In this document: in pieces, positions 4,246 through 60,628 of the stretch
How the letters are laid out: every line of letters begins with the position of its first letter
Numbering within the stretch: position 1 is the stretch's first letter
Origin: Candidatus Bathyarchaeota archaeon
Lineage (GTDB): Archaea; Thermoproteota; Bathyarchaeia; Bathyarchaeales; Bathycorpusculaceae
Length of the DNA stretch: 64,000 nt
Reading direction: 5' to 3'
Assembly: GCA_963733095.1 (NCBI GenBank)
Contig: CAVTBV010000001.1
Coordinates: 64,001 to 128,000, forward strand
Program-made: the position numbers and the translations under genes
Notes under the pieces: generated by a model
What the model was told of the DNA's origin: nothing
Database searches by the model: none
Seen by the model: the letters and a program-made list of their open reading frames with translations, nothing else

Positions 4246-4299
4246 CCCTCTATCGTTTCTGCATAGAAGCACTATTTAGGATCCTAATAGGTTGGTAAA
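4246..4299 (+). repeat. dispersed intergenic repeat, copy A
   Basis: CCCTCTATCGTTTCTGCA identical to 60586-60603, followed by the palindromic core TTAGGATCCTAA. Confidence 0.85.
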
Positions 4300-4340
4300 G
4301 GGTTAAATTTCCAGTTCACATTTCACAACAGGGAAATCAA

Positions 4341-4964
4341 ATGTCAACTGTTACCGATAGAGTGGCTGATGCTCTTTACTTGTCTGGATGCTTGAAGTTT
4401 GGCAGTTTTAAAATCAAGTCGGGAGCAACAAGCCCCTATTACATTGACCTTGCGCGTGTGCTATCCGCTCCCCAGCAGTTGTGTACAATCGCTGAGGCTG
4501 CCTCCGAAAAAATCAAGCAAATAATGGATACTGACCAAATATCCAAGCTCGCTTCCATCGAGCTTAAAGGTGCATTGATTGTTCCAAGCATCGCATGCAA
4601 CCTAAACCTGCCCTGTGTTATTGTTCGAAAAGAAGACAAAGCCTACGGCGTCACTGGAAGAATCGCTGGTGCAAACGTAAGCAAAGGCGATAACATCCTT
4701 TTCTTTGACGACGTCATAAGTGAAGGTCTATCCAAAGTTGAAGGCATAAAACCCCTCCAAGAATTAGGAGCCAACGTTAAGCATTTACTCGTCGTTGTAA
4801 ACCGGGAACATGGCGGCAAAGAGAAACTAGAAAAACTCGGCTATCAAGTCCACGCTTTAGCAAAAATCTCAGATATTGTGAGTTCACTGTATATCGGAAA
4901 ACATGTTTCTAAGGAGCAGGCTGAAAATGTTTTGGATTACGTAAAACACTTTAAGCTTCCTTAG
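4341..4964 (+). CDS. pyrE: orotate phosphoribosyltransferase
   Basis: FGSFKIKSGATSPYYID, RKEDKAYG, PRPP-binding FFDDVISEG. Confidence 0.9.
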   Translation: MSTVTDRVADALYLSGCLKFGSFKIKSGATSPYYIDLARVLSAPQQLCTIAEAASEKIKQIMDTDQISKLASIELKGALIVPSIACNLNLPCVIVRKEDKAYGVTGRIAGANVSKGDNILFFDDVISEGLSKVEGIKPLQELGANVKHLLVVVNREHGGKEKLEKLGYQVHALAKISDIVSSLYIGKHVSKEQAENVLDYVKHFKLP

Positions 4965-5184
4965 TATAATGTGACACAATTTTTTCAGCTATATCACTAG
5001 AAATACCGCTGTTTAAGAGTGCCTTCCGTAGGTATTCGGGGTTATCTGTCTCCACTTTTATCACAAAATTTCTTCGGTCAGTCGCAAATGAAGTTAACCA
5101 AAACCCAAAATAGCCAAACCAACCATACCCCTATATTTATTGGCTGCCAATTCACAACAATATATTACCAAAGGAGATATCGGT

Positions 5185-6192
5185 ATGCAAGCTCAAAAGC
5201 AAGTGGTGGACGCGCTGCTCTCGTCAGATGCGTATCCGCAAGAGACAGGCAAAATTGAACTTATCCAAACTCACATATCCTTTGTTTTCTTAACTAAAAA
5301 TTATGTTTACAAGGTAAAAAAAGCCGTTAACTTCGGATTCTTAGATTTTTCCACTCTTGAAAAAAGGCATGTTTTCTGCGAAAAAGAGTTACAACTCAAT
5401 AGACGGCTCTGTCCAGAAATATACCTTGAAGTTGTTCCCATCAACAAATCAAACAGCATCAAGATAAATGGCGCCGGCGAAACCATCGAGTACGCCCTAA
5501 AAATGAAGAGGCTGCCCCAAGAAAGAATCATGACCCTGCTTCTCAAGGAAAATAAAGTTGACAAAAAAACAATCGACGATATAGCTGGGATAGTTGCTGA
5601 TTTCCACTCAAAGGCGCAGAATAGCCCCGAAATAAGCGAGTTCGGTTCTCTAAAAATAGTGAAGACCAACTGGGACGAAAACTTTGCCCAAACCACAAAA
5701 TACATCAACCAAACGATTTCCCAAACAGAATTTCAATTCATCCAAAATAAAATCGACACCTTCATGGAAAAAAACAAGTCACTTTTTGAACGCAGAATAA
5801 CCGATAAACGTATTCGAGACTGTCATGGTGACCTTCACTCGGGTAACATCTTCATTACCGGTAGAATCTGTATCTTCGATGCTATAGAATTTAACGACCG
5901 TTTCCGCTATTCCGATGTTGCAGCAGACGTTGCCTTCTTAGCCATGGATTTGGATTTCCAGCAGCGCTCCGACCTTGCCGACTACTTCATAGAACGATAT
6001 ATTGGATACTCTAAAGACCTACAACTGACTCAACTGCTTCCTTTCTACAAGTGCTACCGGGCATATGTGCGCGGCAAAGTCGTAAGCTTCAGACTTGACG
6101 ATCCAAACATAAAAACTGAAGAAAAAGAGTGTGCAACCAAAGAAGCCCAAGCCTACTTCAAAATAGCTGCCGAATACGCCAAAAACCTCTGA
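5185..6192 (+). CDS. aminoglycoside phosphotransferase-like kinase (COG2187-type)
   Basis: QTHISFVFL, YKVKKAVNFGFLDFS, CHGDLHSGNI, FDAIEFNDRFR; start moved to ATG 5185 after AAGGAG. Confidence 0.85.
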   Translation: MQAQKQVVDALLSSDAYPQETGKIELIQTHISFVFLTKNYVYKVKKAVNFGFLDFSTLEKRHVFCEKELQLNRRLCPEIYLEVVPINKSNSIKINGAGETIEYALKMKRLPQERIMTLLLKENKVDKKTIDDIAGIVADFHSKAQNSPEISEFGSLKIVKTNWDENFAQTTKYINQTISQTEFQFIQNKIDTFMEKNKSLFERRITDKRIRDCHGDLHSGNIFITGRICIFDAIEFNDRFRYSDVAADVAFLAMDLDFQQRSDLADYFIERYIGYSKDLQLTQLLPFYKCYRAYVRGKVVSFRLDDPNIKTEEKECATKEAQAYFKIAAEYAKNL

Positions 6193-6199
6193 CGGCTTT

Positions 6200-7066
6200 T
6201 TATTTGAATTGGTTAGGTACCCAATCGGGAATCTGGACAGTGCCCATAAGGACTGGTTTTTGATGGCAGTCACTTCCCCCAGTCATGATGAGTCCCTGCT
6301 GCTTTGCGAACGCCACATAATGGTCGGTGGTTTGTGGGGTACTTCTTGAATGCCAGCATTCTACGCCGTCGATGTAGGGCAGCATTTCCTCTTTGATGAT
6401 TTCTGTTTGCTCAGCCAGAACCTTAGTCAAGCTAACCAGCGATGTGCCGTGAGGGTCGTTTGGGTGAGCCAGAACCAGTTCTCCGCCTGCGTCTCGGATA
6501 AGCTTTGAGGCTTCTGGCAGGTAAAGAGGAAACTTGGGTACGTCGCATTTTACAAGGTACTTGTCGAAGGCTTCCTGACGCGTTTTCACGATGCCTTTTT
6601 TGATAAGGTAGTCTGCGATGTGTGGTCGACCAAGGCTGCCGTCGACGGATTCTTCAATCTGTCTCAAATCCTCCCTGGTTAAGGGGGCAATGTTTTCTTT
6701 TTGGAATTCCGTGTTGAGGTTGTCGAGGATTTTAGCGGCGCGTTGGGTGCGGTAGTTTGCCATTGTCTGCGACTTGTCCAGCAGTGTCTTGTTGTCTTGG
6801 TCGTATTGGTATCCTAAAAAATCTAGTGAAACTGCTTTCCCATTCAAGTATTTGGGGTTAGAAAAAGTTACGTTTAACTCAACTCCCGTAACGTATCTGA
6901 TGCCGACCGCCTTGGATTCTGCCAACGCCCAAGGTTGGCATTCTATTGAATCGTGGTCAGTAATTGCTAAAAAACTGATGTTTCTGTCTTTGGCTTCCCT
7001 AAAAATTTCGGGGATGGATAGTTTTCCGTCGGAGCTCTTCGAGTGGATGTGTAGATCAATCTTCAT
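6200..7066 (-). CDS. PHP-domain metal-dependent phosphoesterase
   Basis: DLHIHSKSSDG, ITDHD, GVE, GRPHIA, AHP, GGSDCH. Confidence 0.92.
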   Translation of the reverse strand: MKIDLHIHSKSSDGKLSIPEIFREAKDRNISFLAITDHDSIECQPWALAESKAVGIRYVTGVELNVTFSNPKYLNGKAVSLDFLGYQYDQDNKTLLDKSQTMANYRTQRAAKILDNLNTEFQKENIAPLTREDLRQIEESVDGSLGRPHIADYLIKKGIVKTRQEAFDKYLVKCDVPKFPLYLPEASKLIRDAGGELVLAHPNDPHGTSLVSLTKVLAEQTEIIKEEMLPYIDGVECWHSRSTPQTTDHYVAFAKQQGLIMTGGSDCHQKPVLMGTVQIPDWVPNQFK

Positions 7067-10069: not shown

Positions 10070-11287
10070 TTATTCGGCGGTGCATGTTTGGGTGGGAGAC
10101 GCAAGTTTCTTTATAGCATCTGCGCCTTCTGCATAACCCGAAGCTACCAACACGTCGCCGACAGCAATCTTTGAGTCTCCACGTGGACGCAAGCATTTTT
10201 CGCTGCGTTTTATAACTAGAACCCACATGCCAGTTTCCTCATGCACTCTTGCTTCTTTGAGTGTTTTGCCCACAAGAACAGAGTCCTCTGTGACACAAGC
10301 TTGAGCAACAGTCTCTTCGGCTTCCTTAATGGTTAGCGTTAGAATTGGGTGCGGTTCAATCCCTCTTAAAACAACCTCCGCCATATCTGCAGCCGCATCA
10401 GCAATCTTTTCCGTCGCAATCCCCAACCTGATTAAACCCAGAAAGCCTGAAGCCTCTTCTTCCTTAAAATCACTGGTTAAAGCGAGCAACTCAAAGCCTG
10501 TATGCAACTGATCCATCCATTCTTCAAGCCGCTCAACTTCCTCCGCTAACTCCTTGCTGTTTAGCATCAAAGAGGAGTACGCTAAATCAATCATTAACTC
10601 AGACGTATCTTTAAGCTCCACAAACCTTGAAACAATCTCTTCAAACTTCGCTCGCTTCTTAGTATCCAAAGTTGCAAGTGTGCCCTCTGCTAAGTCTTTG
10701 AATTCCTCAATACCTAATGACGCCCCACGAGTAATCAGAGTGTCACCTTGGAATACAGTTTCTGTTTCATCGGGGTCTAGTTTCCAATCATGATTTCTGC
10801 GGATGGCAATTATATCCACCCCCATTCGTGCTGCTAAATTAAGTTCTCCAATCGTTTTCCCGATAATTTCTGAATTAGGCTTCACTGTAACCTTCATCAA
10901 ACGCTCTTCTACTTTCTGGAAGATTTCCCCGATAATCGGGTGAATTCCAATGTTACGGGTGACGATGGCGGCTATGTCAGCAGCAGCGTCTGAAATCTTA
11001 TCTGTAGAAGACGCAACTATCGACACTCCAATAAGGGCCTCTGCATCCTTTGGATCTCTTGCAGCAACCATTATCTCCATATCTAAAAGGTACGATAGGT
11101 AATCCACTCTCTTTTCCAATGCAAGAACGTCTTCTGCAAGGTCTATGTCATTGTATAGTGCGGAGGAATAAGCCAAATCAATCATTAATTCAGAAAGATT
11201 TTTCATTTCAAGCAAAAGTTCCCTAACCGGGATAGGTTTATACTTTATTTTTTCATATTGGACCAATTTCTCTGGAGCGCTCCACAA
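10070..11287 (-). CDS. tandem PhoU-like/TrkA-C (RCK_C) protein
   Basis: two repeats of SELMIDLAYS...KI(S/A)DAAAD, each followed by a TrkA-C segment (GKTIGEL...DIIAIRR; GKTLKEA...VLVIKR). Confidence 0.85.
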   Translation of the reverse strand: MWSAPEKLVQYEKIKYKPIPVRELLLEMKNLSELMIDLAYSSALYNDIDLAEDVLALEKRVDYLSYLLDMEIMVAARDPKDAEALIGVSIVASSTDKISDAAADIAAIVTRNIGIHPIIGEIFQKVEERLMKVTVKPNSEIIGKTIGELNLAARMGVDIIAIRRNHDWKLDPDETETVFQGDTLITRGASLGIEEFKDLAEGTLATLDTKKRAKFEEIVSRFVELKDTSELMIDLAYSSLMLNSKELAEEVERLEEWMDQLHTGFELLALTSDFKEEEASGFLGLIRLGIATEKIADAAADMAEVVLRGIEPHPILTLTIKEAEETVAQACVTEDSVLVGKTLKEARVHEETGMWVLVIKRSEKCLRPRGDSKIAVGDVLVASGYAEGADAIKKLASPTQTCTAE

Positions 11288-11325
11288 TAAATAAGGGTCT
11301 ATGTTATTTTAATTTGCGCTTTAAT

Positions 11326-12489
11326 CTATATAATTACGAGTAGCGCTGCAAACAAGGCGATGGTTGTTATGGCGTCCGCTAAAGAACTTCCGAGGGGAAT
11401 GACAAAGTTGTCTGGGTCTAAGCCTCTTTTGAAAGTCAATATGGAAATCGCATAAGTTAAGATTGCAATTGCTGCGTAAGCGATTATGTTGGAAATTAAG
11501 AGTGTTAAAAGTAAGTTAGAAATTGCTTGCCAAGAAAATATACCGTTAATAGCTAATGCAATTAGACCCGTAACAACAAATAGCATAAGGGAAGCCGTCC
11601 AGGCGCTAAAAATGTTTCTGGCATGTTTCTTTATCGAGGAAAAAGAGGGTGTGAGAATGCCTAATGCAAGTTTCGTAGTTGCAGCTGAACCCACGACCAA
11701 TCCAATGTCACCCATCATATTAATCATGGCTGGGTATACTGTGAAGATTTCTCTTCGGCCAGCGGCAAGTGTGCTTATGCCTTTGAGAACTGTTCCCGTT
11801 ATGTTTACCATAAAGGCTACTAAAAGCATGGCTGGCAATGATTCCTTTATTATTTTGAGGAACTCAGCTTCACGCAGGCTGCGAGGCAGAATGGTCAAAA
11901 CTAAAACTACGTTGATGGCTCCAAAAACTATTATCGCCCATTTGCCGCCTATCCCAGAAAAGTAAAGGTTCAATACGATTATGTAAAAAAAAGTAATGAT
12001 GATTTGTGCTACCGTCGAAATCGCTGGAAATACGATCGTGTCTGGATCTAAACTGCTCTTGAAAGAAATGATCGTGAGTTTTGCAGTTATCAAAGTAGTA
12101 AGCAACCCCAACGAGAGGGTTCCAACCATAATCGTGAGGATAGCTGGAAAATCCGTGATTGTTATGCCCCAAAACAGGGTCCCGAAAACTATTGATATTA
12201 CACTAATCGTTGTGCTTGTTATCAAGGTCAAAACGACCATGGCTTCAATCAACCTGTAAAATGTCTTTGTGTTTCCAAAAAACTTGGGATCAACTGTTCC
12301 AAGATGAAGTGCTGTGCTCAGGCGACCAGTTAGTAAACCGGTGGTAGCGCCTTTTACACTGATTACAGCTGGGTAGAGCGCTATAGCCCAAGGTGAAAGC
12401 TGGAAAACCCCAAGCTGCAATGCAATCATAAAACCAGCAACTAAGCCGCCGATATCAAATATGCATGCTATTGCTGACTCTTTAAACAT
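11326..12489 (-). CDS. MgtE/SLC41-family divalent cation transporter (two membrane repeats)
   Basis: RLSTALHLG, LDPDTIVFP, GLDPDNFVIPLGSSLAD. Confidence 0.85.
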   Translation of the reverse strand: MFKESAIACIFDIGGLVAGFMIALQLGVFQLSPWAIALYPAVISVKGATTGLLTGRLSTALHLGTVDPKFFGNTKTFYRLIEAMVVLTLITSTTISVISIVFGTLFWGITITDFPAILTIMVGTLSLGLLTTLITAKLTIISFKSSLDPDTIVFPAISTVAQIIITFFYIIVLNLYFSGIGGKWAIIVFGAINVVLVLTILPRSLREAEFLKIIKESLPAMLLVAFMVNITGTVLKGISTLAAGRREIFTVYPAMINMMGDIGLVVGSAATTKLALGILTPSFSSIKKHARNIFSAWTASLMLFVVTGLIALAINGIFSWQAISNLLLTLLISNIIAYAAIAILTYAISILTFKRGLDPDNFVIPLGSSLADAITTIALFAALLVII

Positions 12490-12788
12490 TCCAAAGAAAC
12501 CTTTAGAGAAGCCAGCATGTGTGATCTTTGCTGCCCCCTAAGATTGTTCTTCTATTAAGTTGGAAAAAATGTAACTCGAAGGATTCTCTAGAAGGGTTTG
12601 GCGGCCGTTCGTTTTGTCAAGTGGAGTTGATGCTGTGACCGCTTTGGTCGAATTTGGAGAGGTGTGGACTCCATTCATGTTTACGCCTTCTAATTTGTTT
12701 GGCGGTCCACAGTCACTGAAGCGCCGTGTGTGCGGGCTGCCAAAGCCGCATTAACTGCCTGTTGAAGTTTTTGAAAGGCAACAAGCAC

Positions 12789-14936
12789 TTAAGAGGTTTT
12801 TGGTTGATATACGCACCACGGGTCCTCAGTTAAGTAATCATTCTTCAATTCTTCTGGTTCATGGAGGTCGCCGCAGTAATCGATGAAATCGCTTGAAAGA
12901 CCATACGCACGTGCTCGGCAACCACCGCAAAGTGAACGGTATTCGCAGGCGCCGCATCTGCCCTTCAAAGAGTTAGGGTCCCTTAGCGCTTTGAAGATGT
13001 CTGAGTTGAACCAAATTTCTTTGAAGCTTTTTTCTCTAACATTTCCAAGTTTAACTGGCAGGTAGGGGCAAGGTGTTACATCACCATTGGGGTAAATGCG
13101 GCAGTAGTACAAGCCTGCCATGCAACCTCGCACCCATTGTCTCATGTCTAAGCCCATACCTTTGGCAATCCGCATAAACTGCGGCGCACAAGAGGGTCTC
13201 ACGTTTAGCTTGTGCTTTGTGACTTTTGCAAAAGTGTTGGTAATCATATCTTCGTATTTTTGAGGCGAAATATCTGCTAGTTTGGCACCGCGACCTGTTG
13301 GAACAAGGAAGAACAGATGGAAGTTTTCGACACCGATTTCTTCCGCTAAACTCATGATTTCGTCGATTTGGTTGTAATTCTGTTGAGTCAGTGTGGTGTT
13401 TACCTGGACTAACACGTTGTTCTTTCGCAGGGCTTTGCATGCGTTGACTGCTTTTTCCCATGCGCCAGCTACGCCTCGGAATTCGTCGTGTTGCGCTGGA
13501 ATATGTGAGTCTATGCTTATGGAGACTGTTGCTATGCCAGCCGCTTTAAGTTTAGCCGCTACTTTGTCATCTATGAGGCTTCCGTTGCTTCCCAACCCCA
13601 TTTTCAATCCCTTAGATGCGCCATATTCGATTAGCTCGTAAATATCTGGCCGCAGAAGGGGTTCGCCGCCGCTGAGTATGAGTAGTGGCTTGCTAACTTT
13701 GCATATTTGGTCCATGAGGTTTTTGCCCTCTTGGGTTGACAGTTCATCGGATAGTTTCTTTTCTGTTGCGTTGATGTAGCAGTGGCTGCATTTCATGTTG
13801 CATTCGCGGGTAACGTTCCAAGACATTACAAGTGGAACATACTTTTCAGCTGTTTGCGCTTCTGGTGAATGTGCAAGTTTTAGGTAGAACTCGCAGTTGC
13901 CATGGGAAGCTATCAGTTTAGGCTGCCAGAGCGTGAATGGGAAAGGCAACACCGTGTCAAGCATGGCTTTTGCGTGAGCAAAACAGAAATGAGTACAGAA
14001 TAACCCCGAAACCTTGCTGTCAACACCATATTTTTCTGAAGCGTATTTGTGGCCTCCATAAATCGGGCAATTCAAAAACTCCATTTTTCCATCGAGGGTT
14101 TCGTTGCTCATAGCCATATTGATGAAGTGGTCGCTTAACATGACTGACTGCAGTTTCTCTCTGCGCATCCCAACCTTCAAGGTAACGTCAAGGGCTATGC
14201 TGACGGTTTCTTGACCAAACTTTTCCTGCACCCCTGCCATGGCTGCTTCGAGAGCGGGTAAACCGACGGTTTTGGTTAATTCAGCCGTAACCAGCAAACC
14301 CTTGATTGTTTCGTACTCTTGGGTAAGTCGCATCGCAATGACTTGTTTTGCCCAGTCAACAAATAGTTTCTCCATTGCCTCGGATGCTTTGGGGTTCTTG
14401 CTATATAGTAGGGCTTCGACTTTTTTGTTATCTTGCTTTAGCTTGGTGAATAATTTGATTTTATCCTCGCTTGTCGGTCTTGGACTTGTAGCTATTTCTT
14501 GTAGACCTACAGGAAGGGGTGTTACTGTTTGCGTAAGTTCTTTTGCGTCAGACTCAAAATCGCCGTAAATTTTGTTCAACTGCTCAGACACATTGGGCAA
14601 CTCGACATTTAGGGCTTTGAGAATCACTTGGGTTTCTGACTCCATCTTCGAAACCATAGCCATATGGTACAACAAGGAACCAGCCATCCCTGGGTCCCCT
14701 TGCTTGCCTCCCATAGCACCCTTGAAAATCTGGTTAAACAAACCTTTTGCAGAATCAAAATCCATTTTTTCTATGGCAACCTGAGCTTCGCTTAGTTTTT
14801 GTTTGCGGTTAAGTAAGAGTTGAGCCCACTTATGGCATTGTATAGCGTCAAAGTTTGTTAATGAGTCCACGCCCTTGAAGCTTAAGATTCCAACTTGGAA
14901 GTAATAAAGGCTAGCGATACGAAAACAGCTAAGCAA
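12789..14936 (-). CDS. radical SAM/SPASM enzyme (AhbD/NirJ-like) with long N-terminal extension
   Basis: CNMKCSHC, LSGGEPLLR, RPSCAPQ, SPASM cysteines CPY...CGACEYRSLCGGCRARAY...DPWC; start may be GTG at 14870. Confidence 0.85.
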   Translation of the reverse strand: MLSCFRIASLYYFQVGILSFKGVDSLTNFDAIQCHKWAQLLLNRKQKLSEAQVAIEKMDFDSAKGLFNQIFKGAMGGKQGDPGMAGSLLYHMAMVSKMESETQVILKALNVELPNVSEQLNKIYGDFESDAKELTQTVTPLPVGLQEIATSPRPTSEDKIKLFTKLKQDNKKVEALLYSKNPKASEAMEKLFVDWAKQVIAMRLTQEYETIKGLLVTAELTKTVGLPALEAAMAGVQEKFGQETVSIALDVTLKVGMRREKLQSVMLSDHFINMAMSNETLDGKMEFLNCPIYGGHKYASEKYGVDSKVSGLFCTHFCFAHAKAMLDTVLPFPFTLWQPKLIASHGNCEFYLKLAHSPEAQTAEKYVPLVMSWNVTRECNMKCSHCYINATEKKLSDELSTQEGKNLMDQICKVSKPLLILSGGEPLLRPDIYELIEYGASKGLKMGLGSNGSLIDDKVAAKLKAAGIATVSISIDSHIPAQHDEFRGVAGAWEKAVNACKALRKNNVLVQVNTTLTQQNYNQIDEIMSLAEEIGVENFHLFFLVPTGRGAKLADISPQKYEDMITNTFAKVTKHKLNVRPSCAPQFMRIAKGMGLDMRQWVRGCMAGLYYCRIYPNGDVTPCPYLPVKLGNVREKSFKEIWFNSDIFKALRDPNSLKGRCGACEYRSLCGGCRARAYGLSSDFIDYCGDLHEPEELKNDYLTEDPWCVYQPKTS

Positions 14937-15017
14937 TAGTGCATCTTCAAAGCAGGCGCGTATTCGATAAACTAATTAACCTCAAAATGGAACATAGCCA
15001 ACATAAATGGGTGAATC

Positions 15018-15314
15018 GTGATGTCTTTGGATTTCAATCTACTTTTCGCTTTAATCGGTTTCTTAATCATGCTGGGCATGCTCGGCGGTATAGGCATCAA
15101 TAAACCTCGCGGAATGAGCGTGAAAATGTGGTGTGTCGGCTACCTTGCGGTTGCGCTAGGTTTTGATGCGTTTGCCGTTGTTGGGTTAATAGGGGGCTAC
15201 AAATGGTTAACTTTCTTGCTTGTGGGTCTTTCTGCTGGAGCAGCAACGGGCTTAGCCCTACACGTTATGCATCACATCAATGAAGAAGATGCACACCCAA
15301 CATTCATGGGTTAA
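15018..15314 (+). CDS. small membrane protein
   Basis: three hydrophobic segments, GGTGA RBS upstream, T-rich tail. Confidence 0.65.
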   Translation: MMSLDFNLLFALIGFLIMLGMLGGIGINKPRGMSVKMWCVGYLAVALGFDAFAVVGLIGGYKWLTFLLVGLSAGAATGLALHVMHHINEEDAHPTFMG

Positions 15315-15512
15315 AAATCTTTTTTTATTCAAAATAACATAGGGAGCCAATGCTTTAGAGCGTCGCAATGATTGCTGCAATTATGCTGCTTAGGAAAACG
15401 CATTCAAATGCTTTTGGAAACGGTGCAGATTAGTTTTTTTGGGAATGTGTACCTCTTCGAGGTGTGGGTTGTATATCGGAAACGAGGGTTTTTTATTCTT
15501 TCCTAAAATTAG

Positions 15513-16487
15513 TTAGAACGTTGATATGAATTCTCTTTGAAGAGGCCAAACGGTGAATAACCTATCTACTCCTACTTCCATTTTAGTTAATCCCGGCAAA
15601 CTTGCAATTTGTTCTTGGATATCTACTAACTGATTGATGTCTTTTATCATCAAGCTGAATGTATAGTCGTGGTTGCTGCTTGATTTAGTTATGAAATTTA
15701 TGTCTTGAATTCTTGATAGACTTTCAGTGTTACGTTCCAACGTTTCGGTAGAAAACGACACATAAAAAATTGCGAAGGCGAAATAGCCGATCTTTGTGGG
15801 GTTTATCTGAACTACAACCTTAAGGTCTCCATTTTCTTTTAGTCTTTCATACCTTCTAACAACGGTATCAGTAGAAACATCTAACGACTTCGCAATTTTT
15901 TCAAAGGATATTCGGCCATCTACTGCTAATTTTTCTATAATGCTTGTGTCAATGCTGTCAATCTTTATCTCTGCCTTTTTTTCAGGTAAACTTGCATTTC
16001 TGAAGAATTGTTTTGATTTTGATTCTTCCGTGTCAAGAACTGAAAGGTTTTCTGGAGTTGTTCTTATGCCTATCCAAACTCTAACATCTACTCCGAGAAT
16101 ATAGGGCAATCGTTTTATTGCGTGTTTAACCTGCTCAAGTTCTTCAATACTCTTCAAGATTGCTTCCGCAGCAATTGTTTGATTTATAACCCGTGAGTAG
16201 ACATGAAAGACATGCGGTGTCTTTCTGACGGATTCAATAGCGCCGTCCAATTTGCCATGCTGAACATTAATGAGGATAGTTGAAACGAATTTGCCCGAGT
16301 AACAAGTGTGACTATTTTGAATTGTTGCTCCAACGATTATGCCTTTGTTTTCCATTTGTTTATAGCGTTTGGAAATAACATCTTTTGATGTGTTGCATTC
16401 TTTAGCAATTTCTGCAAATTTTTTCCTTCCGTCCATTAGTAGTTCTTTTAGAATTTTTTTGTCGATTGTGTCAATTACGGACTTCAT
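15513..16487 (-). CDS. tandem Lrp/AsnC transcriptional regulator
   Basis: two Lrp HTH units (IDTIDKKILKELLMDGR; IDSIDTSIIEKLAVDGRISF), each with a RAM-like domain. Confidence 0.88.
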   Translation of the reverse strand: MKSVIDTIDKKILKELLMDGRKKFAEIAKECNTSKDVISKRYKQMENKGIIVGATIQNSHTCYSGKFVSTILINVQHGKLDGAIESVRKTPHVFHVYSRVINQTIAAEAILKSIEELEQVKHAIKRLPYILGVDVRVWIGIRTTPENLSVLDTEESKSKQFFRNASLPEKKAEIKIDSIDTSIIEKLAVDGRISFEKIAKSLDVSTDTVVRRYERLKENGDLKVVVQINPTKIGYFAFAIFYVSFSTETLERNTESLSRIQDINFITKSSSNHDYTFSLMIKDINQLVDIQEQIASLPGLTKMEVGVDRLFTVWPLQREFISTF

Positions 16488-22714: not shown

Positions 22715-23388
22715 ATGACTTAAATTTAAAGTGTTGCTTCTGAAAAGGATTTGAACTCAATTCAATAATAAACGCCACATGTGTGATGTCGGCTCTTTGG
22801 CAAAGCTTGTCTGTTCGCCATTAGTCCCGAATTTGATGTAGCAATAATTCTGTCAATTATATTGGGTGTTTAGTTATCAATTGAGCAGTTATTCACAATT
22901 TTTATGAACAATTCTTAACTATATTTATATTTAGCTAAACAAAAGTATGTTTATCGAACAGAAGGAGTTTAAACAAAAATGAAAAAAGAAGCGAGCTACA
23001 AAATTCGAGCAAATGTGAAAAAAACAGGAATCCAGATAGCAGCAGCACTGGAAGAGATTGAAAAGTCGGTACTGCTGACTGCCTTAAACATAATTTCCTT
23101 GTGCACCTCCTTCGCTTTCAATAGGTTTTCCCAAAACAGCCACGCCGTAAATAATGGCTTCAATTAGAACCCAACTTTTTTCAAAACACTCCAAAAATGA
23201 CCTGTTTGTTTAGGTTGCTATTAAGGTAGAGACCTAATATTTATTATCAGTGTCTCATCTTGAAAACGCCAATAAAGAAATCCAGTTTCTGAAGAAATAA
23301 AAGCAAACTAGAACTCAAATTGAAACTTGAAACACTACAGTAAGCGCACGATAGATAAAAAGCCTAAATCGGCACCGCGAATGCTATG

Positions 23389-25089: not shown

Positions 25090-25309
25090 GACACCAGAGA
25101 ATGTGGGGATATTACCCCTCGTTTTTCTCCGCAGCAACTTTCCCTTTTTTATTGCAATACCGAGGTTTAAGCCCCATCAAATCGTTTCTGTCCTCAGGAA
25201 TTAATACTGAATTCTGTCCAACCTTTTCTTTTTTAAGTATTTACTGGCACAACTTTTGGCTGTGGGTAGAACTTGGCTCGTCTTCAGGGCGTTAATTGTT
25301 CAAGTCTAT

Positions 25310-37605: not shown

Positions 37606-37635
37606 ATGAAACAACTCAAAATGGCTTGTGTAATA
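37606..37635 (+). pseudogene. fragment homologous to the cobN 5' end
   Basis: ATGAAACAACTCAAA identical to 31392-31406; MKQLKMACVI vs MKQLKVAFIT. Confidence 0.5.
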
Positions 37636-38368: not shown

Positions 38369-38491
38369 TGGCGCCGGGGAAGGGATTCGAACCCCTGCGA
38401 GCACGAAGCCCACCAGCTATCTTGCCTTTTGGCTAGCCCTCTTTTGTGTTTGATCTCGAGGCTGGCGCGATAACCACTCCGCCACCCCGGC
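38369..38491 (-). tRNA. tRNA-Ser(CGA) with 36-nt intron at 37/38 (38419-38454), CCA encoded
   Basis: GCCGGGG/CCCCGGC acceptor, CCAGC-CTCGAG^A-GCTGG anticodon arm, long variable arm, GGTTCGAATCC. Confidence 0.92.
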
Positions 38492-39063
38492 TCCAGCCTA
38501 AACATTTGCATTGTGGCTAAAAGAGTTTTCAGTAGAAAACAAATATGCCTGTTCTTCTCCCGATTTCATCTGATTCCTCAGCAAACTTGAACAAATAAGA
38601 AGTATGGCTTTCAACATACCCATAACACCACAAACAACCAAAACTAACATGCCTCTCTTAACGATAGTAAAAACAATCTTCTCCTCAACGCTATGTAGTT
38701 GTAAATTTGCTTTCAAATCTGCCACAATAACGTCGAACTGCCAAGGTTGATGGCCAGAAGGAAGGACGGCGTGGACGGGAGGAAGTTGTTGTTGTTGCTG
38801 CTGCTGCAACTGCATTCTGCACACCAGTTGCAACAACAACCAAAGAAGGCTACATTTACGCCTAAAGACTTGACCGATAAAGTATGACAACAACTGAACC
38901 CAAAGAAGATACAACCACTGCTGCAACAACAGAATTTTGCACAAAGACTGTTGAATCTTTCAAGACTAACCTCAAATCAATCAGTTTAACCGTGCGTCTT
39001 GAAGATTTTTGATCAAACCAACTCACAACCGCAAAAAACGAAAATTTATTTTGGGAGCAGAAA

Positions 39064-39100
39064 TCTTTATCCTTTGCAACGGAAGTTTACTATTAGGAAC
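39064..39100 (+). repeat. degenerate copy of the dispersed repeat
   Basis: TCTTTATCCTTTGCAAC...ACTATTAGGA; the last 10 nt are identical to 60611-60620. Confidence 0.4.
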
Positions 39101-42104: not shown

Positions 42105-42509
42105 ATGCCGAAAGAATTTAGCTACCGTGGACAAAGTCTTGCCAGTTTAACAGGCATGTCCATGGATGAATTCATCAACATGCTTCCCTCCCGTCAACGC
42201 AGAAGCCTACAACGAGGGCTAACACCAGAACAACGCATACTGCTTGAAAAACTGCGCGAAGCAAAAGAAGCCCAAAAACAAGGCAAAGACGTCAACATCA
42301 AAACACACGTCCGCGACCTAATCATTCTGCCAGAAATGGTTGGCGCAAAAATCGCCGTTCACAACGGCAAAGATTTTGTCGCCATGGAAATTAGGCCAGA
42401 AATGATCGGTCATTACCTTGGAGAATTCGCCATAACTAACAAGCCTGTTAGGCATGGAACTCCAGGTATCGGTGCGTCGCGTTCGTCAATGTATGTGCCG
42501 CTAAAATAA
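42105..42509 (+). CDS. rps19: 30S ribosomal protein uS19
   Basis: [38 protein letters not shown]. Confidence 0.97.
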
Positions 42510-42618
42510 CCTGTTTCTTTTCTTTATTTTCTTTGTTTTGTTGATGCTTTCACACACGGGAAACTTTGCCTACTTATTTCAACATTTTAATAGCATTGAA
42601 GGGATCAATATGCTCTGT

Positions 42619-42741
42619 CCTCTTAGAGATTTCTTGACCCCTCTCTTGTTTCTGCAATGAGTTTTAATATTTTTCAAATAGGCGCCTTGCCCTCTATGGT
42701 TTGAACATAGAACCTCTATTAAGTCCTAATAGGTTCGTAAA
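42619..42741 (+). repeat. dispersed repeat, two tandem degenerate copies (B1 42638-42659, B2 42690-42741)
   Basis: CCCCTCTCTTGTTTCTGCAATG and CCCTCTATGGTTTGAACATAGAACCTCTATTAAGTCCTAATAGGTTCGTAAA. Confidence 0.75.
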
Positions 42742-42933
42742 AGCCTCCCATCTATGGGTGAGGTGAATAGATTGAAGATAGGATGCGAATAGAATATTGC
42801 AAGCTTTAACTGGATGCTCCGTTGGTGGTTTTGCCAATTTAGATAAACGTTAATAGTGCATCCAGTTAGTTTCTAGTGAGGCTTTTGGGCATGTTTAGTT
42901 TTCAGTCACGCGTATCGCGTTTTTGCAACTGTA

Positions 42934-48845: not shown

Positions 48846-49227
48846 GATTATCTCTCCAGCGGAGTATGAAATTGGGTGCTCTCTCTATTAAGGATTTATG
48901 CAGAGTTATTTTATTTAGAGAGATGTATTTAGTCCCTTGGTTGTTTTAGTTTGCGGTAAAGTTGTAGTTGTATTCGGTTATTTTTACTTCATTGTATTTT
49001 ACTCATCACGCCTTGTTTACTGCGGCTAAGTTCCAAGAGTATTTAATTGGATAACTTAGCTTGAAACTTGTTATAATCCCATAAACATAGTTTGTAGCTG
49101 CTGTATATGTGGTAATATTTTAAGTTATGTTGGAACATGTATGAAGCCAACATACGTTTTTATTACCTTTCCGAAGAGGTGTATGACTTATACACACTTC
49201 TGTGTATAAAAAAGGAGAAAAGAACAA

Positions 49228-51979
49228 ATGCTAAATCTAAAAAGTAAAAAAATGGCCATTTTCATTACAGCGATTTTAATCATTTCTATGGGAGCTTCAA
49301 TGGCACTAATACCAAACACTAACGGGCACACTCCACCATATCAGATTCAGCTGTTTGCATTCGTTAATGTTGCACCTAACCCTGCTGGGCTGGGTCAGAC
49401 TGTTACTGTTGGCTTTTGGCTAAACGCACCGCCAATGACTGCAGGCACTATCTATGGTGACAGGTATGGTCCATTCACCGTACATGTCATAAAGCCTGAT
49501 GGAACAAACGAGACATCTGGGTCCATTCACTTCTGACGATACTGGTGGAACAAGCACACACTATACACCTGACCAATTGGGCGAATACCAATTCCAGATG
49601 ACCTATCCAGGACAAACACTAAACGGTGGCCAATACGGCTTAACTGGCATTAGCAACCCAAACTACATCAACGACACTATTTTACCAGCTATAAGCGATG
49701 TTGCAACCTTAACTGTACAGCAAGAACCAGTATCCTCTATTCCGGGCACTCCGCTTCCAACTAGTTACTGGCAGACTCCGATCAACGCGATGAACGTTAA
49801 CAACTGGTACACTATCGGCGGTCCTTATCTTGGCCTCTACATCGGCTACAGCGCAGGTAAAGGCGCCTCCAACTACAACACAACCACAAACTTCAATCCC
49901 TACTCTACTGCGCCGCTTACATCTCACATCATTTGGACAAGGCCCATTACTTTTGGCGGTGTCATCGGCGGTGATGCAGGCGGAACGACGACTTACGGCA
50001 ACTATTATTCGACTGCTCAGTACGAACGGAAGTATAATCCGATTGTCATCAACGGCTACCTTTACTACACTCAAATCCCAGGCAGCTCAGCTAACCCTAC
50101 TGCCAACGTCTGCGTTGACTTATACACTGGACAAACAATATGGGTCGACGACTCAACCAACTTAGGCGGTGGTAGTCCAGCGCAAACTGCTCTAACATCA
50201 GCAGGCTTAGTTACTCCCCTAGTGAGCGGTCAAGTGCTAGATTACGTGTCACCCAACCAATACGGCGGAATTGCATACCTATGGACGAGCGGAACCCTTG
50301 ACGGAATATACACGCGGCCTGGAACGACTTGTTTGAACATGTTTGATGCTATGACTGGTAAGTATATTCTTAGCATTGTTAACGGTACGGGCTTTTCGTA
50401 TGGACACACTGTGGATGCATCAGGCGACTTCATTGATTACTACACTAACACTACTGTTGGGACACAAACAATCTACGGACAAATTCAGCCAGTCATTGGA
50501 CCAGAACCCACAAAAGTTACTAACACTGCGGGCAACGGGTTGCTTGAGGTTTGGAATTCAACACAGTGCATTATGCTAGGCGCAGGCTGGGCATCTTCAT
50601 CGGGTTCAGGATGGAATTGGAAACCTAACCAGAATCTTGTCATCGACTATTCAAAAGGCATAATGGCTGCGTATCAGCTACCTACGGGTCAACCGACAAG
50701 TTGGACAATTATGGGCGTTAACAGCGGTGTCGCAATTCTTTACTCGCTAAATAACGCAGGGCTTACAAACTACTTCCAAACAGGTTCTGACTGGTTTACT
50801 GGCTTTGACATGAACACTGGACAACAGCTATTCGTTAAGGAGATCGCTTTTACGCCTTACACTGCAGTTAACTTAGACAACTATGGCAACGTTGCCGATG
50901 GAGTTTTCACAACCATCATCAAAGAGACTGGCGAGGTATCTGCTTTCAGTGTCACTACAGGCAATCTAGTTTGGACGACGACTCTTAAGGGCGATAATGG
51001 TGCGGATATAAATGCTTATGATACTGTGGGCGGCATTAAGGGCAACATCTACGGTGGGAACTTCTATATCTTTGGCTTTGGCGGCGACATCTGGTCTTTG
51101 TCGATGGCGGATGGCTCTGTTAACTGGTACACGAACACTACAAAGATTACTGGTGAAGCTGGCGGTAATACACCGTATGGTGTTTGGCCTATTTGGGTGC
51201 AGACTGGCATCGGCGGTGGTGGTGGATTGATGTTCCTTGGTGAGGGACATGAGTATTCGCCTCCTCTGTTCATCGGTTCTCAGCAATTGGCGATTAACTG
51301 TACGACTGGTGATCTTGTGTGGGCGATTGATTCGTTTAATGTCAACAGCAATCCGGAGCTTGCGTATGGTATTATGACGAATTTGAATGCTTATGACAAC
51401 CAGATCTACGCTTATGGGCAGGGTCCGAGTGCTACTACTGTTAGTGCTCCTCAGGTAGGCGTTTCTACTGCTACTCCGATTACTATTACGGGTACTGTGA
51501 CGGATGTTTCTGCGGGTGCAAGGCAAGAAGCGGTTGCAGCGAACTATCCCAATGGGTTGCCGGTGGTTTCTGATGCTAGTATGAGCGCGTTTATGGAGAC
51601 GGTGTATATGCAGCAGCCGGATCCGCACAACGAGGTCGGTGTTTCTGTTACTCTTAGTGTTGTTGACTCTAATGGTAACTATCGATCTATTGGTTCTACT
51701 ACTACTGATGCTTCGGGTGCGTACGGTTTTACTTGGACTCCTGATATTGCGGGTGATTATACTTTGATTGCGACGTTTGCTGGTTCAGGTGGCTACTATG
51801 GTTCTTCGGCTCAGACTCATTTCTATGCTAGTGACGTGGTGGCTTCGACTTCGGCTCCTACATCATCGACAGGCAACTATGCTACGACTACTGACTTTGC
51901 GATCGGTATTGCAGCGATTATCGTTGTGCTGGTTATAATCGGCGCATTGATTATGATGATGCTAAGAAAACGACCATAA
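49228..51979 (+). pseudogene. PQQ-like beta-propeller surface protein with one frameshift (pseudogene or assembly error)
   Basis: signal-peptide ORF 49228-49536 joins 49499-51979 if one base near 49516 is removed (KPDGTNET-LGPFTSD); paralog of 16689-19346. Confidence 0.8.
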
Positions 51980-57865: not shown

Positions 57866-57934
57866 GCTTTATGATAAAGCATCAAGCAGAATGCATTTTC
57901 CCTCGAATAAACCTTACCCTTCCAGAACCACAGT

Positions 57935-58453
57935 TTAGCTAACTGGCTTTCTTGCTTTAGATTTTTTTGGTGTAAACAAAAATGCAGTGATTTGTTCGAT
58001 AAGCTTGGTTTGGTTTGCGGCGGTTTTTTCTAGGTCTTGGATTCTTTTTTCAAGGTCGTTTGAGATGATTTTGCCTTCAATGCGGTTGGCGGAGCGGAAC
58101 ATGAGGAGCATCTTGAACACTTCATCAATCGCTCTCAGTTTTTCCTCGTTTGAAGCTGGCTTTGTTCCGGCGATAACTGATAGAAGGTCAACGTAGTGTT
58201 CTTTGATTTTTAGTTCGGCGTTGACTGAGGGGTCAGTTGGGAACGCTATGCTGAGCGGGGTTTTCTTCGCCAGTTCGGCGGCAGTTGGGAAACGGATGAT
58301 TATGTCGCCTCTTATCCATGAAGAAACAAATTCTGTAACGAAGCGGCGAATATCCTTTTCCGAATAGAGCAAAGTTGACGTTGGCTTTGGCTCAGGTTTT
58401 CTCTTGATTCGTACGCTGATAATTTTCTTGTCTTCTGCATTATCTTTCGACAT
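57935..58453 (-). CDS. hypothetical protein with C-terminal coiled coil
   Basis: 172-aa ORF filling the gap, GAAGG RBS; no family recognised. Confidence 0.65.
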   Translation of the reverse strand: MSKDNAEDKKIISVRIKRKPEPKPTSTLLYSEKDIRRFVTEFVSSWIRGDIIIRFPTAAELAKKTPLSIAFPTDPSVNAELKIKEHYVDLLSVIAGTKPASNEEKLRAIDEVFKMLLMFRSANRIEGKIISNDLEKRIQDLEKTAANQTKLIEQITAFLFTPKKSKARKPVS

Positions 58454-58535
58454 TTAATTTCCTTCTATGCGCCTCTAAGCGTTCTTCGCGTTATTTTCTT
58501 AAGTACACCTAGTATTTAAGAAAAACATCTTTCTT

Positions 58536-59816
58536 TTAAAAAGAAATCTTTGCTGCCGAAGGAATCTTTCCCAGAATCTTCGCAGTTGCCTTCTCCACCT
58601 TCGCCCGGTCAGCCTCATCTGTGTAGACCCGAAGAATGTTCATGAAGCCCTTGAGGGTTTCAAAAATCTTGGAGCTCTCACTTAACCTCTGGAGCTTCTT
58701 TTCTCCCCCTGGACTTCTTGTAAAGACCGGAATCTCGGTTGATTCCATGAGCACCGCATGGTGATAGGGGACTGATGGGACCGTTGGCACATCGATTATA
58801 ACAGAGCCTAATTCAACTCCTGCCTCATTCGCAATTTCACTCTGTACTTGTTGTCGATAGGTCTCGCGACCGAACAGGTTAGAAATCATAGCGTCCTTTT
58901 CATAGAATGTCCGTTCGTAAGCGCATTTGAGCATGCGCCGATTTTCCAAGTTGCTGATGATTTCGTTGGATGCTTTGCATTTCCTGAGAGCAGCCCAAAC
59001 GGTGTAATCGTCCAACGCCATGTATTCTTCAGGGGTTTTAAACGCTGTTAAACCCAGTTCTTGGTTGGCTTTGTCCATGGCGGTAGCCAGCATAATCTGC
59101 GCGGCTCGTCCGACACGGTGGAAATAGATGCTCTTGAAAGACTCTATACGGGCAATAACAAACGCCTCCAAAGCTGACAACGCGCCTAATTCGACGGCTA
59201 AGTTTTCGCCGAAAACGTCGAGTGCATGTATTAAGCGGTAAACGTCTATGAAGCCGTATTCTGCACCTGTGTGGTAAGTGTCTCGCACAATGAAGTCTTG
59301 CTTGTCTACGTCGACGGCGCTACTAATTATCTGATTGAGAAACGCCCTGTCCTTTTTGTGTAGCTTTCCCACAGCTAATCCTGCGACCTCTTTTGGGTTG
59401 AAGCCCAGTTTGGATAATTTGTCGCTGAGTTCGCTTTCCTCTATAATCCATGAGGTAATGTCTTCATGGGTTTTCTCAAGGTCCTTGATTAGCAGGTGCT
59501 CAAAGACATGCGAGAAAGGTCCATGTCCGCAGTCATGGAGTAGTGCTGAAATGCGGCACATGTCCACCTCTTCGTCGTTGACGACACGTGAAATATTGGG
59601 GTTTTCCAAAACGTGGCCCGCGAGGTACATAACTCCTAGGCTGTGTTCGAAACGTGTGTGGTTAGCGCCTGGATAAACATATTCGGAGCCCGCCAGCTGC
59701 CTTAGTCTGCGTAGTCGCTGCATTGGGTAGGTGTCGATAACGTTCTTTTCAGCTTCAGTAATGTACACATATCCGTGTACTGGATCTTTGATTTCTCCCC
59801 AGTAAGCTTTAGGCAC
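58536..59816 (-). CDS. HD-domain phosphohydrolase (SAMHD1/dNTPase-like)
   Basis: IKDPVHG, QRLRRLRQL, HTRFEHSLG, LLHDCGHGPFSH, DVDKQDFIVRD, YFH. Confidence 0.92.
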   Translation of the reverse strand: MPKAYWGEIKDPVHGYVYITEAEKNVIDTYPMQRLRRLRQLAGSEYVYPGANHTRFEHSLGVMYLAGHVLENPNISRVVNDEEVDMCRISALLHDCGHGPFSHVFEHLLIKDLEKTHEDITSWIIEESELSDKLSKLGFNPKEVAGLAVGKLHKKDRAFLNQIISSAVDVDKQDFIVRDTYHTGAEYGFIDVYRLIHALDVFGENLAVELGALSALEAFVIARIESFKSIYFHRVGRAAQIMLATAMDKANQELGLTAFKTPEEYMALDDYTVWAALRKCKASNEIISNLENRRMLKCAYERTFYEKDAMISNLFGRETYRQQVQSEIANEAGVELGSVIIDVPTVPSVPYHHAVLMESTEIPVFTRSPGGEKKLQRLSESSKIFETLKGFMNILRVYTDEADRAKVEKATAKILGKIPSAAKISF

Positions 59817-59885
59817 AAGCGCAACCTCACAGTTGTAAGCTATATTTAGGTAACTTCCATTAATGTGTAACGCATACCAGCCGAG

Positions 59886-60506
59886 GTGACAAACATGGGC
59901 AAAAAAGGCATCTTCATCATTATAGAAGGCTTAGACGGAAGCGGCAAAACCACCCAGGCAACTTTGCTCGCACAAAAACTCTCTAAAAGCTTCAATGTTG
60001 TGTTGACCGCTGAGCCTAGCCGAGGCAAAATCGGCACTTTCATCCGCGAAGGCTGCCTATACGAAGACAAACGTTTGCCCACGGAAGCCGAAGCCCTGCT
60101 TTTCGCCGCCGACCGCATCGAACATATGTACAGCGAGGTAAAGCCGGCTTTAGATGAGGGCAAACTGGTAATATGTGACCGCTACATCTACTCGTCCTTA
60201 GCCTATCAGGGAAGCGCAGGCCTGAGTTTAGAGTGGATAAAAACCATCAATGCTCGCGCATTTCAGCCGGATTTCAGCATTTTCATCGATGTTGCGCCTG
60301 AGCGGGTGATTGAGCGTTTGCAGAGAAAGAAGTCTGTTATGGAGACTTTGGAGACGCAGCAGAAGGTTAGGCAGGTTTACATCAAGTATGTGGAGAAGGG
60401 TGAACTCGTCAGAATTAACGGTGACAGAGCCAAGGAAATTGTGGCTGACGATCTACATGTCAAGGTTTTGGGTTTGCTTAAGAAATGTCAGGATTTTGCT
60501 GTTTAA
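59886..60506 (+). CDS. tmk: thymidylate kinase
   Basis: EGLDGSGKTT, EALLFAADR, CDRYIYSSLAYQG. Confidence 0.95.
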   Translation: MTNMGKKGIFIIIEGLDGSGKTTQATLLAQKLSKSFNVVLTAEPSRGKIGTFIREGCLYEDKRLPTEAEALLFAADRIEHMYSEVKPALDEGKLVICDRYIYSSLAYQGSAGLSLEWIKTINARAFQPDFSIFIDVAPERVIERLQRKKSVMETLETQQKVRQVYIKYVEKGELVRINGDRAKEIVADDLHVKVLGLLKKCQDFAV

Positions 60507-60552
60507 CTGCTAGTTTTTAACATGCTAATGGCTTCGGAAGCCGCCAATACTG

Positions 60553-60628
60553 ACCTCCCCCTTAGAGAAAACGGTGGCACCTCCCCCCTCTATCGTTTCT
60601 GCAATGTACCACTATTAGGATCCTAATA
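60553..60628 (+). repeat. dispersed intergenic repeat, copy C (best conserved)
   Basis: CCCCCTTAGAG...CCCCCCTCTATCGTTTCTGCAATGTACCAC followed by the perfect 16-bp palindrome TATTAGGATCCTAATA (60613-60628). Confidence 0.85.

Follow-up and report, generated by a model that had tools for sequence, protein, structure and literature searches.

A modular intergenic repeat dispersed through Bathyarchaeia genomes, with conserved boxes that are candidate protein-docking sites

The 64,000-nucleotide stretch of Candidatus Bathyarchaeota DNA analysed here (the window; G000:C1:64001-128000, from G000, a 2.84-Mb genome in 16 contigs that is 95% complete) adjoins a replication origin, with cdc6 at 124-1365 and three repeats of the origin recognition box (ORB) type, two direct and one inverted, in the 0.5 kb before the window start, upstream of cdc6. 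Three intergenic loci within the window, near 4.2, 42.6 and 60.5 kb, carry a similar box in the same direction, and a preliminary description of this DNA took them for a polar, origin-proximal binding site of a replication, segregation or nucleoid protein, or else for an undescribed non-autonomous repeat. The locus therefore raises the question of what kind of element recurs here and whether it has anything to do with the origin. We report that the three loci are 3 of approximately 86-90 copies, in this genome, of a modular repeat of about 125 bases. The family is an old, modular, non-coding intergenic repeat that is lineage-wide in many Bathyarchaeia, and this descriptive core is secure. The element is neither an origin element nor a replication-polar signal, and the pattern of its conservation suggests that its boxes may be maintained as binding sites on the chromosome.

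The three main loci of the window are real and lie far beyond chance. The 17-nt box occurs without mismatch at 4247-4263 and 60587-60603 and with 2 mismatches at 42640-42656, and the 3 matches found in the real window were reached in none of 100 dinucleotide shuffles (mean 0.18), which bears out the recurrence of the box that was first noticed. A 16-nt palindrome had been named as the second half of the site; it is exact at 60613-60628 (copy B) and has 2 mismatches at 4274-4289 (copy A). R1, a sequence-only covariance model built from 23 genome copies and run on the window without filters, recovered four units, every one on the + strand (Table 1). The element extends ~65-70 nt further upstream than had been thought, to just past the stop codon of the upstream gene at the 4.2- and 60.5-kb loci. 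Weaker copies had been suspected at 39064-39100 and 23218-23240, where R1 gave no match, and a third at 25172-25190, where the match (25159-25190) reached only E 4.9.

Table 1. Positions of the repeat units and of other features referred to in the text. Positions are those of the window unless another sequence is named.
Feature	Position	Strand	Remark
R1 unit	60508-60631	+	E 7.7e-26
R1 unit	4175-4297	+	E 3.2e-23
R1 unit	42573-42685	+	E 8.7e-19
R1 tandem second unit	42689-42739	+	E 3.7e-07
Marginal L-only match, doubtful member	38605-38688	+	R1 model positions 6-79, E 0.021
Copy A, unit L	4180-4219	+	T-run, TTTCAACAT box, imperfect inverted pair round variable loop
Copy A, optional module M	4220-4245	+	CCCCTTTTAGGG box
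Copy A, unit R	4246-4296	+	18-nt box, 9-nt spacer, near-palindrome
42.6-kb copy, unit L	42577-42612	+	68 nt downstream of rps19 (42105-42509)
42.6-kb copy, module M	42613-42637	+	
42.6-kb copy, first R unit	42638-42686	+	degenerate palindrome
42.6-kb copy, second tandem R unit	42690-42739	+	
42.6-kb copy, start of third unit	42744-42766		R'-type, follows second R
Copy B, unit L	60514-60550	+	begins 8 nt past tmk stop
Copy B, module M	60551-60584	+	long form
Copy B, unit R	60585-60630	+	holds the perfect 16-nt palindrome
ORB-type repeats	L091 5507-5530, 5950-5973, reverse strand of 5767-5788		L091 5507-5978 = G000:C1 ~63.5-64.0 kb
Insertion sequence copy in G069:C1	L226 1415-2464		near 1.025 Mb
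Insertion sequence copy in G069:C1	L227 1121-2170	reverse	near 1.489 Mb
Insertion sequence copy in G069:C1	L228 1545-2594		near 1.977 Mb

Throughout the genome the 17-mer, allowed up to 3 mismatches, has 57 occurrences, and an nhmmer profile seeded with 30 copies (threshold E at most 1e-3) rose over three rounds from 73 to 83 to 86 matches; R1 returned 90 matches at the same places and on the same strands as nhmmer. One copy (C4 81696 = C13 7239) is counted twice because contig ends overlap: C2/C8, C4/C13, C10/C11, C10/C12 and C14/C15 share 5-10 kb at 96.5-99.9% identity, and these overlaps are probably unresolved strain variants or unjoined ends. Of the 86 matches, 84 lie between open reading frames (ORFs), as called by a crude longest-ORF caller.

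Alignments reveal a constant order within full copies: a unit L, an optional module M, and then one to three R units. In unit L a T-run and a TTTCAACATG box are joined by a pair of AT-rich half-sites that flank a variable loop of ~10 nt. Unit R (~50-60 nt) combines a C-run and a GTTTCTGCAATGA-type box with an AT-rich box centred on TAGGATCC, a variable spacer of 4 nt lying between the two boxes. Module M, of ~21 nt, is discrete. Among the 65 copies that span both flanking anchors it is present in 33, the anchor-to-anchor distance being 23-64 nt (mode 29-31) in these 33 and 6-10 nt in 29. The CCYCTT(T)AG box noted ahead of the three main loci is real and belongs to this optional module. A further R or R' unit is frequent behind the first R, and since L and R are variants, diverged from each other, of a single unit, related directly and not by inversion, each copy amounts to a short array of units set head to tail. 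On the left the border is sharp, conservation ending ~12 nt before the L box, with a short conserved left flank that bears a TAA-like triplet ~9-12 nt ahead of that box; the right border lies ~8 nt beyond the AT-rich box. Internal distances are regular: GTTTC and TAGG are 21 nt apart in 31 of 43 copies, and the distances between L box and R box fall mostly at 48-54 and 68-74 nt, M adding ~21 nt. Spacer and box variants are linked: a CAAYGA-type box precedes each of the five GTTC spacers, and a CATARA-type box precedes 6 of the 10 ACCN spacers. The palindrome does not belong to the constant parts of this design. Of 67 copies just 3 form all 9 pairs, and the modal value is 6 of 9; pairing at position 6/13 occurs in 19 of the 67, and there are no compensating changes. 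The two best copies of the window are among the most symmetric of the family. An extension of the stem by the flanking spacer, considered by eye, was unsupported.

The family has a history of dispersal. At site A, upstream of the gene that starts at 4341 in the window, 9 of 30 orthologous loci are filled and 21 are empty; full copies are found in G000, G002, G011, G035, G042 (two units), G005 and G046, and degenerate ones in G001 and G012. The empty loci consist of a stop codon, 5-26 unrelated bases and then an invariant promoter-like stretch, which in G000 abuts the R end. At site B, after tmk, 4 of 30 loci are filled (G000, G010, G035 and a degenerate copy in G011); G001 retains an apparent L remnant, judged by eye, and the empty loci carry a short A-rich spacer. 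Because an orthologous site may be occupied in one relative and vacant in another, we conclude that the element spread by copying. Collinearity with five relatives over a 17-kb stretch of C3 places two of its three copies exactly at the ends of collinear blocks, and with the filled and empty sites this indicates that the element was inserted and marks rearrangement joints. No target duplication was seen at sites A and B against the empty sites, or in the flank profiles, in comparisons with relatives 77-83% identical in DNA; as the nearest relatives are no closer than this, exact element borders cannot be fixed.

Two local observations accompany these comparisons. In the 17-kb stretch (L092, G000:C3 96000-113000) the copies lie at 2441-2559, 10321-10390 and 15559-15692, and a 5.1-kb block at 10404-15514 sits between two of them in G000; in G000, G001 and G012 alone does this block adjoin its left neighbour, and G002, G010 and G035 have it elsewhere. 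At site A, G003 and G038 (L040, L037) have a small insert of another kind, in which a short loop is framed by an 8-nt inverted repeat, and the site may attract several kinds of small insert.

Whatever dispersed the copies, they are now old, and their conservation is concentrated in the boxes. Pairwise identity averages 0.585 over 59 near-full copies, and the nearest neighbour is at most 0.79 identical, except for one assembly duplicate; with no pair of copies above 79% identity, young copies are lacking, as is any sign of recent activity. Conservation resides in ~59 columns (at least 0.9 bit), and ~25 columns carry almost none. Orthologous sites divide in the same way. Between species with 79-87% identity in the flanking proteins, identity at sites A and B is 0.70 and 0.76 in the box columns as against 0.44 and 0.38 in the other columns, and at site B the comparison of G000 with G010 gives 49 of 56 identical box positions against 8 of 23 others. 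Unrelated paralogue pairs score 0.76 in the boxes and 0.31 outside them. The variable parts at orthologous sites have therefore diverged almost to the paralogue baseline, whereas the boxes have not. Box-only conservation of this sort would be expected under selection for the boxes at each locus and not under neutral decay of dead copies. For a wider test of selection, 80 public loci furnished only 5 orthologous pairs with alignable flanks.

The reading that we favour, with about even confidence, is that of an old dispersed repeat, once copied about, the boxes of which are now kept as a putative docking platform on duplex DNA for a sequence-specific protein. Copies would have been dispersed in the past by a copying process, and selection at each locus would since have held the boxes. 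Duplex DNA is preferred to RNA as the level of action because there is no conserved fold and because orientation is free relative to the neighbouring genes. The boxes might then act as a phased platform, their distances of ~21, 52 and 73 nt fitting whole helical turns, and the docking protein could be architectural or topological, by analogy with the bacterial interspersed mosaic elements (BIMEs) of enterobacteria. The idea of a binding site for a chromosome protein, voiced in the preliminary description, thus retains some support, in so far as box-only conservation and even spacing point to it.

The family extends well beyond this genome. When up to 57 candidates per genome were scored with R1, it was found in 30 of 61 genomes of the genus; 8 of the 61 reached this upper number of matches, and 31, one-contig assemblies among them, had no match. 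Counts within the genus range from 0 to 169 matches per genome, the latter in G064, and some genomes have at least 150. Of 101 genomes sampled from the order, 15 had the repeat: 9 of 20 in the same GTDB family, where it extended to four further genera, and 5 of 80 outside that family, with few matches each. One genome per prokaryote species was scanned with a strict two-box pattern, which matched at least 117 stretches, and all 80 listed titles were Bathyarchaeia, Bathyarchaeota or, for one metagenome-assembled genome (MAG), Thermoproteota; in a viral contig collection the same pattern had zero matches. Copies in other species fit R1, built from G000, as well as G000's own do, and the consensus of the family is stable across genera. 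The alternative that the preliminary description had left standing, an undescribed non-autonomous repeat, is the one borne out by the number of matches, their position between ORFs, the 30 of 61 genomes and the filled and empty sites.

Copies are placed along the chromosome with little regard to gene direction and more evenly than chance. In G000, 29 copies share the direction of a tandem gene pair and 15 are antisense to one, 19 are in divergent and 17 in convergent spacers; the gene upstream points the same way as the copy in 47 cases and the other way in 36, and for the gene downstream these numbers are 51 and 34. Between repeat orientation and the local strand bias of genes there is a weak correlation (r 0.29, p 0.007). 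In G064, which is one contig of 3.0 Mb, there are 169 R1 matches, of which the best 150, on which the statements for this genome rest, merge to 123 loci at 5-13 per 200 kb along the whole chromosome; on the 2.1-Mb contig G069:C1 copies likewise occur all along. The coefficient of variation (CV) of gaps was compared with a hard-core random null, and for G000 with an intergenic null, the tests for relatives resting on the best 150 matches per genome. The CV was 0.751 for 118 loci of G064 (null 0.931, standard deviation 0.085; p 0.004) and 0.700 for 92 loci of G069:C1 (null 0.918, standard deviation 0.091; p 0.002), and 0.865 for 67 gaps of G000 (null 1.010, standard deviation 0.115; p 0.08). Spacing is thus more even than chance on the two large chromosomes. 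A more ambitious form of the docking proposal, in which R arrays would dock a conserved architectural protein that divides the Bathyarchaeia chromosome into units of ~20-25 kb, would explain the even gaps, the conservation of phased boxes alone at orthologous sites and the irrelevance of orientation to genes and replication; we nonetheless regard it as unlikely.

Could the element instead be an oriented, origin-proximal ORB- or parS-like site for Cdc6/Orc1 or a segregation protein, marking the origin or the direction of replication? The window invites this reading, for it adjoins the origin, all four of its units are on the + strand, and the R box, read on its reverse strand, has GAAAC and a GGGGT run in common with the ORBs of G000; contig C1, which holds the origin, also has 11 of the 86 matches against ~6.7 expected pro rata. 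The likeness to ORBs is, however, limited to GAAAC and the G-run, which are 6 nt apart in the element and 3 nt apart in ORBs, and the TCCAGTAG-type half of the ORBs is missing from it. Beyond the window the common direction is lost: copies occur on 15 of the 16 contigs, most of which have both orientations, and in G000 orientation does not correlate with GC skew (r -0.08). G064 has its cdc6 orthologue at 2.148 Mb, and the +/- counts in the 200-kb bins from 1.8 to 2.6 Mb are 6/4, 6/1, 8/5 and 8/0. There is no strand flip at cdc6, since the + strand leads on both sides of it and on the opposite part of the chromosome (82 + / 41 -; runs test p 0.34). This chromosome-wide 2:1 excess of one strand, without a switch, is not a search artefact, because R1 reproduced the nhmmer strands on G000; it is not shared by G069:C1 (52 + / 41 -, runs p 0.24). 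Of the 61 genomes of the genus, 56 have two or more Cdc6 paralogues, whether they carry the repeat or lack it, and paralogue number does not track it. A parS-type site was rejected on the unconserved palindrome and on the 86-169 matches per genome, which are spread along the chromosome and are not a few near the origin, and a replication-polar motif like the FtsK-orienting polar sequences (KOPS) or Chi on the lack of any orientation switch at or opposite cdc6 in G064, together with the strand counts of G069:C1. An origin-related role is largely refuted by distribution and orientation, and we consider it most improbable.

A role at the level of RNA, as a 3' untranslated region, terminator or processing signal, or as a family of unstructured small RNAs with protein-binding boxes, would account for some features of placement. 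All three window loci follow a + strand gene, two of them starting 8-15 nt past its stop; where the upstream gene is co-oriented, its stop codon lies 6-10 nt ahead of L in 7 of 27 cases; tandem gene pairs favour the co-oriented arrangement (29 against 15); and the element opens with a T-run. Oligo-T tracts are termination signals in archaea. Yet the upstream gene is on the other strand in 36 of 83 cases, 15 copies run antisense to a co-oriented gene pair and 19 sit in divergent spacers, the 70 nt upstream hold no conserved promoter-like box, and RNAalifold found 0 pairs in 23 copies. Single copies on either strand fold no better than shuffles (z-scores -1.31 to +0.67), Rfam gave no match at gathering score (permissive best E 3.4 and 7.2), and the C/D-box layout, looked for by eye, was not seen; the variable stretches measure only ~4 and ~10 nt. 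Contigs from four of seven sequencing runs (one of the seven RNA; shares at most 0.28) represented related organisms only, and none lay over window 42578-42720. The sole CRISPR array of the genome (G000:C1 190709-192917, ~30 repeats of 37 nt) has an unrelated repeat, and a link to it was discarded. On balance a role in RNA appears quite improbable.

The main rival to a docking platform is a purely selfish non-autonomous element, similar in the wide sense to a miniature transposable element with inverted repeats (MITE), which some transposase or recombinase, whether rare, lost, missing from the assemblies or from a family not recognised as such, would have mobilised in trans; for that enzyme the boxes would be recognition sites, and they would have no host role. 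The filled and empty orthologous sites, the patchy presence (0 to 169 matches per genome inside one genus), the subfamily-like linkage of spacer and box variants, the decay in low-copy relatives and the two of three copies at the ends of collinear blocks all agree with this, and the conserved left flank, with its TAA-like triplet and fixed left border, recalls insertion beside a fixed short target. A mobile source was nevertheless not apparent. G000 has neither a longer copy with an ORF nor a multi-copy insertion sequence (IS), its large repeats being paralogous genes for beta-propeller surface proteins and ABC transporters, and the genes between eight neighbouring element pairs have no protein in common, which disposed of a composite or autonomous element. 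The Y1 transposase family PF01797 had 0 matches in G000, G064, G042, G053, G069 and G072 (controls were positive in 6 of 14 genomes), and the TnpB marker PF07282 is absent from G000. IS110 (PF01548) occurs in 24 of 61 genomes and in none of the seven richest in the repeat, IS4/5 (PF01609) in three and IS630 (PF13358) in none of five rich genomes, and reverse transcriptase (PF00078) in no repeat-rich genome, and none of these families follows the distribution of the repeat; the absence of IS91-type PF04986 from five genomes is weightless, since control genomes were equally silent.

Mixed orientation and polymorphic presence, two of the signs by which the preliminary description would have recognised a MITE, were indeed found, but neither terminal inverted repeats nor target-site duplications were seen at the aligned left and right ends, and with no partner IS the element is not a classical MITE. 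Nor is it a classical REP (repetitive extragenic palindromic) sequence or a palindrome-associated transposable element (PATE) derived from IS200/IS605, given that Y1 TnpA, TnpB (in G000) and hairpins beyond chance are lacking. A casposon-derived MITE was set aside, as inverted ends and long duplications were not seen, and an integron attC-like site, suggested by ends resembling core sites and by the position of the element directly behind ORFs, was dropped because overall inverted symmetry is lacking and copies lie among housekeeping genes and not in cassette arrays. Together with the lack of any pair above 79% identity, the conservation of boxes alone in all copies and at orthologous sites, which is unlike neutral decay, and the zero matches in the viral contigs, this makes the selfish explanation rather unlikely.

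Several considerations weigh against the docking platform as well. The docking protein is hypothetical and the boxes are only candidate sites for it; the helical phasing is inferred, and the box distances are spread by a few bases. There is a detection bias, in that only copies that have kept their boxes can be found, and degenerate copies (G001 and G012 at site A, G011 at site B) show that the boxes have decayed in some lineages. Box conservation could also stem from re-insertion at favoured spots or from gene conversion. Any host function must be dispensable, because the family is missing from 31 of the 61 genomes of the genus, one-contig assemblies included. Even spacing rests on two genomes and on the best 150 matches of each, and in G000 it is not significant. 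Finally, the weak preference of copies for the strand of neighbouring genes (r 0.29, and tandem pairs 29 against 15) and the start of L just after stop codons in 7 of 27 cases would be explained as well by a role in RNA or at gene 3' ends.

An IS that inserts into the repeat was encountered in G069:C1. It is 1,050 bp long, encodes a DDE_Tnp_1 (PF01609) ORF and is present in three copies that are 99.6-99.8% identical (Table 1). Each copy is inserted in the centre of the AT-rich box of an R unit, with the 6 central bases duplicated on either side of it (GGATCC, or GGACCC where the target has that variant), and the IS appears to use the repeat as a preferred target. IS elements that target REP sequences occur in enterobacteria and provide an analogy.

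In the window the repeat lies among ordinary genes. Copy A is flanked by a PhoU-domain gene (3191-4165) and a phosphoribosyltransferase-like gene; its unit L starts 15 nt after the TAA stop (4163-4165) of the former, and its R end runs into a conserved promoter-like stretch (4294-4310) of the gene at 4341-4964. The 42.6-kb locus follows rps19, the last gene of a row L4-L23-L2-S19, and copy B lies between tmk (59886-60506, TAA stop 60504-60506) and a converging ABC-2 permease gene (60673-61803); the convergent tmk/ABC pair of the preliminary description is this 60.5-kb locus. On contig C11 a repeat copy stands on each side, in opposite orientations, of the 16S ribosomal RNA gene (start near 37630; G000:C11 36728-39359). 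Elsewhere in the window, the - strand of 38372-38491 has an Rfam tRNA match of 47.6 bits across 120 nt and no ARAGORN call, and is probably an intron-bearing tRNA gene. A 2.8-kb segment (49211-51979) that encodes an 826-aa protein with a weak PQQ_2/beta-propeller match is duplicated at G000:C12 355903-358665 with 94.5% identity, and similar large paralogues are duplicated between contigs C9/C14 and C13/C16.

The repeat invites comparison with known systems. According to PMC3184786, BIMEs, or REP clusters, are like it in being extragenic, in numbering tens to hundreds of copies that stand singly or in mosaic clusters with other short motifs, in being tied to recombination points and in having no MITE signatures, and in Escherichia coli BIMEs bind integration host factor (IHF), DNA polymerase I and gyrase. 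REP units are G+C-rich stem-loops that alternate in orientation and are linked to a REP-associated tyrosine transposase (RAYT) of the Y1 type, whereas the units described here are A+T-rich, head to tail, without a fold beyond chance or a conserved palindrome, and no Y1 transposase was found in six rich genomes. The BOX elements of Streptococcus pneumoniae resemble the repeat in modularity, with a left module, variable middle and right parts and optional portions, and in their hundred or so intergenic, non-coding copies; according to PMC3184786 they are thought to be mobilised by a named IS, are transcribed and have predicted RNA structures, none of which has been shown for the repeat. The two have no sequence relationship and belong to different domains of life. 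The layout of BOX is boxA-boxB-boxC.

Archaeal counterparts are fewer. The MITEs SM1-SM4 of Sulfolobus, with 25-44 copies each according to PMC10969869, are likewise small, non-coding, multi-copy archaeal elements with differences in presence and absence, and the MITEs named in the archaeal passages of that review are from Sulfolobus, Halobacterium, Haloquadratum and Desulfurococcus only, with none from Bathyarchaeia. A MITE is recognised by its terminal inverted repeats, by target duplications and by a partner IS that shares its ends, and none of these was found for the repeat. Archaeal ORBs share with its reverse strand an oriented box of ~20-25 nt in which GAAAC is followed by a G-run, but ORBs cluster at the origin and the repeat has ~90 dispersed copies that differ in spacing and in the missing half. 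A full-text literature search returned no description of such an element for Bathyarchaeia, and the main text of PMC11697101 makes no mention of repeats, mobile elements, intergenic elements or the replication origin.

Dispersed intergenic repeats are well studied in bacteria and hardly in archaea, and the present family is unusual for its kind in that it has no hairpin, inverted ends, partner transposase or young copies, and in its box-only conservation and even placement. The repeat explains contig and synteny breaks in these MAGs, and it should be masked before origins, promoters or small RNAs are called from motif recurrence. If the boxes are protein sites, they would offer a handle, in the form of a defined DNA bait of ~50 nt, on chromosome architecture or topology in an uncultured and globally abundant archaeal class. 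Were the division of the chromosome into units of ~20-25 kb to prove true, Bathyarchaeia would possess a sequence-defined chromosome-domain system carried by a repeat that began as a selfish one.

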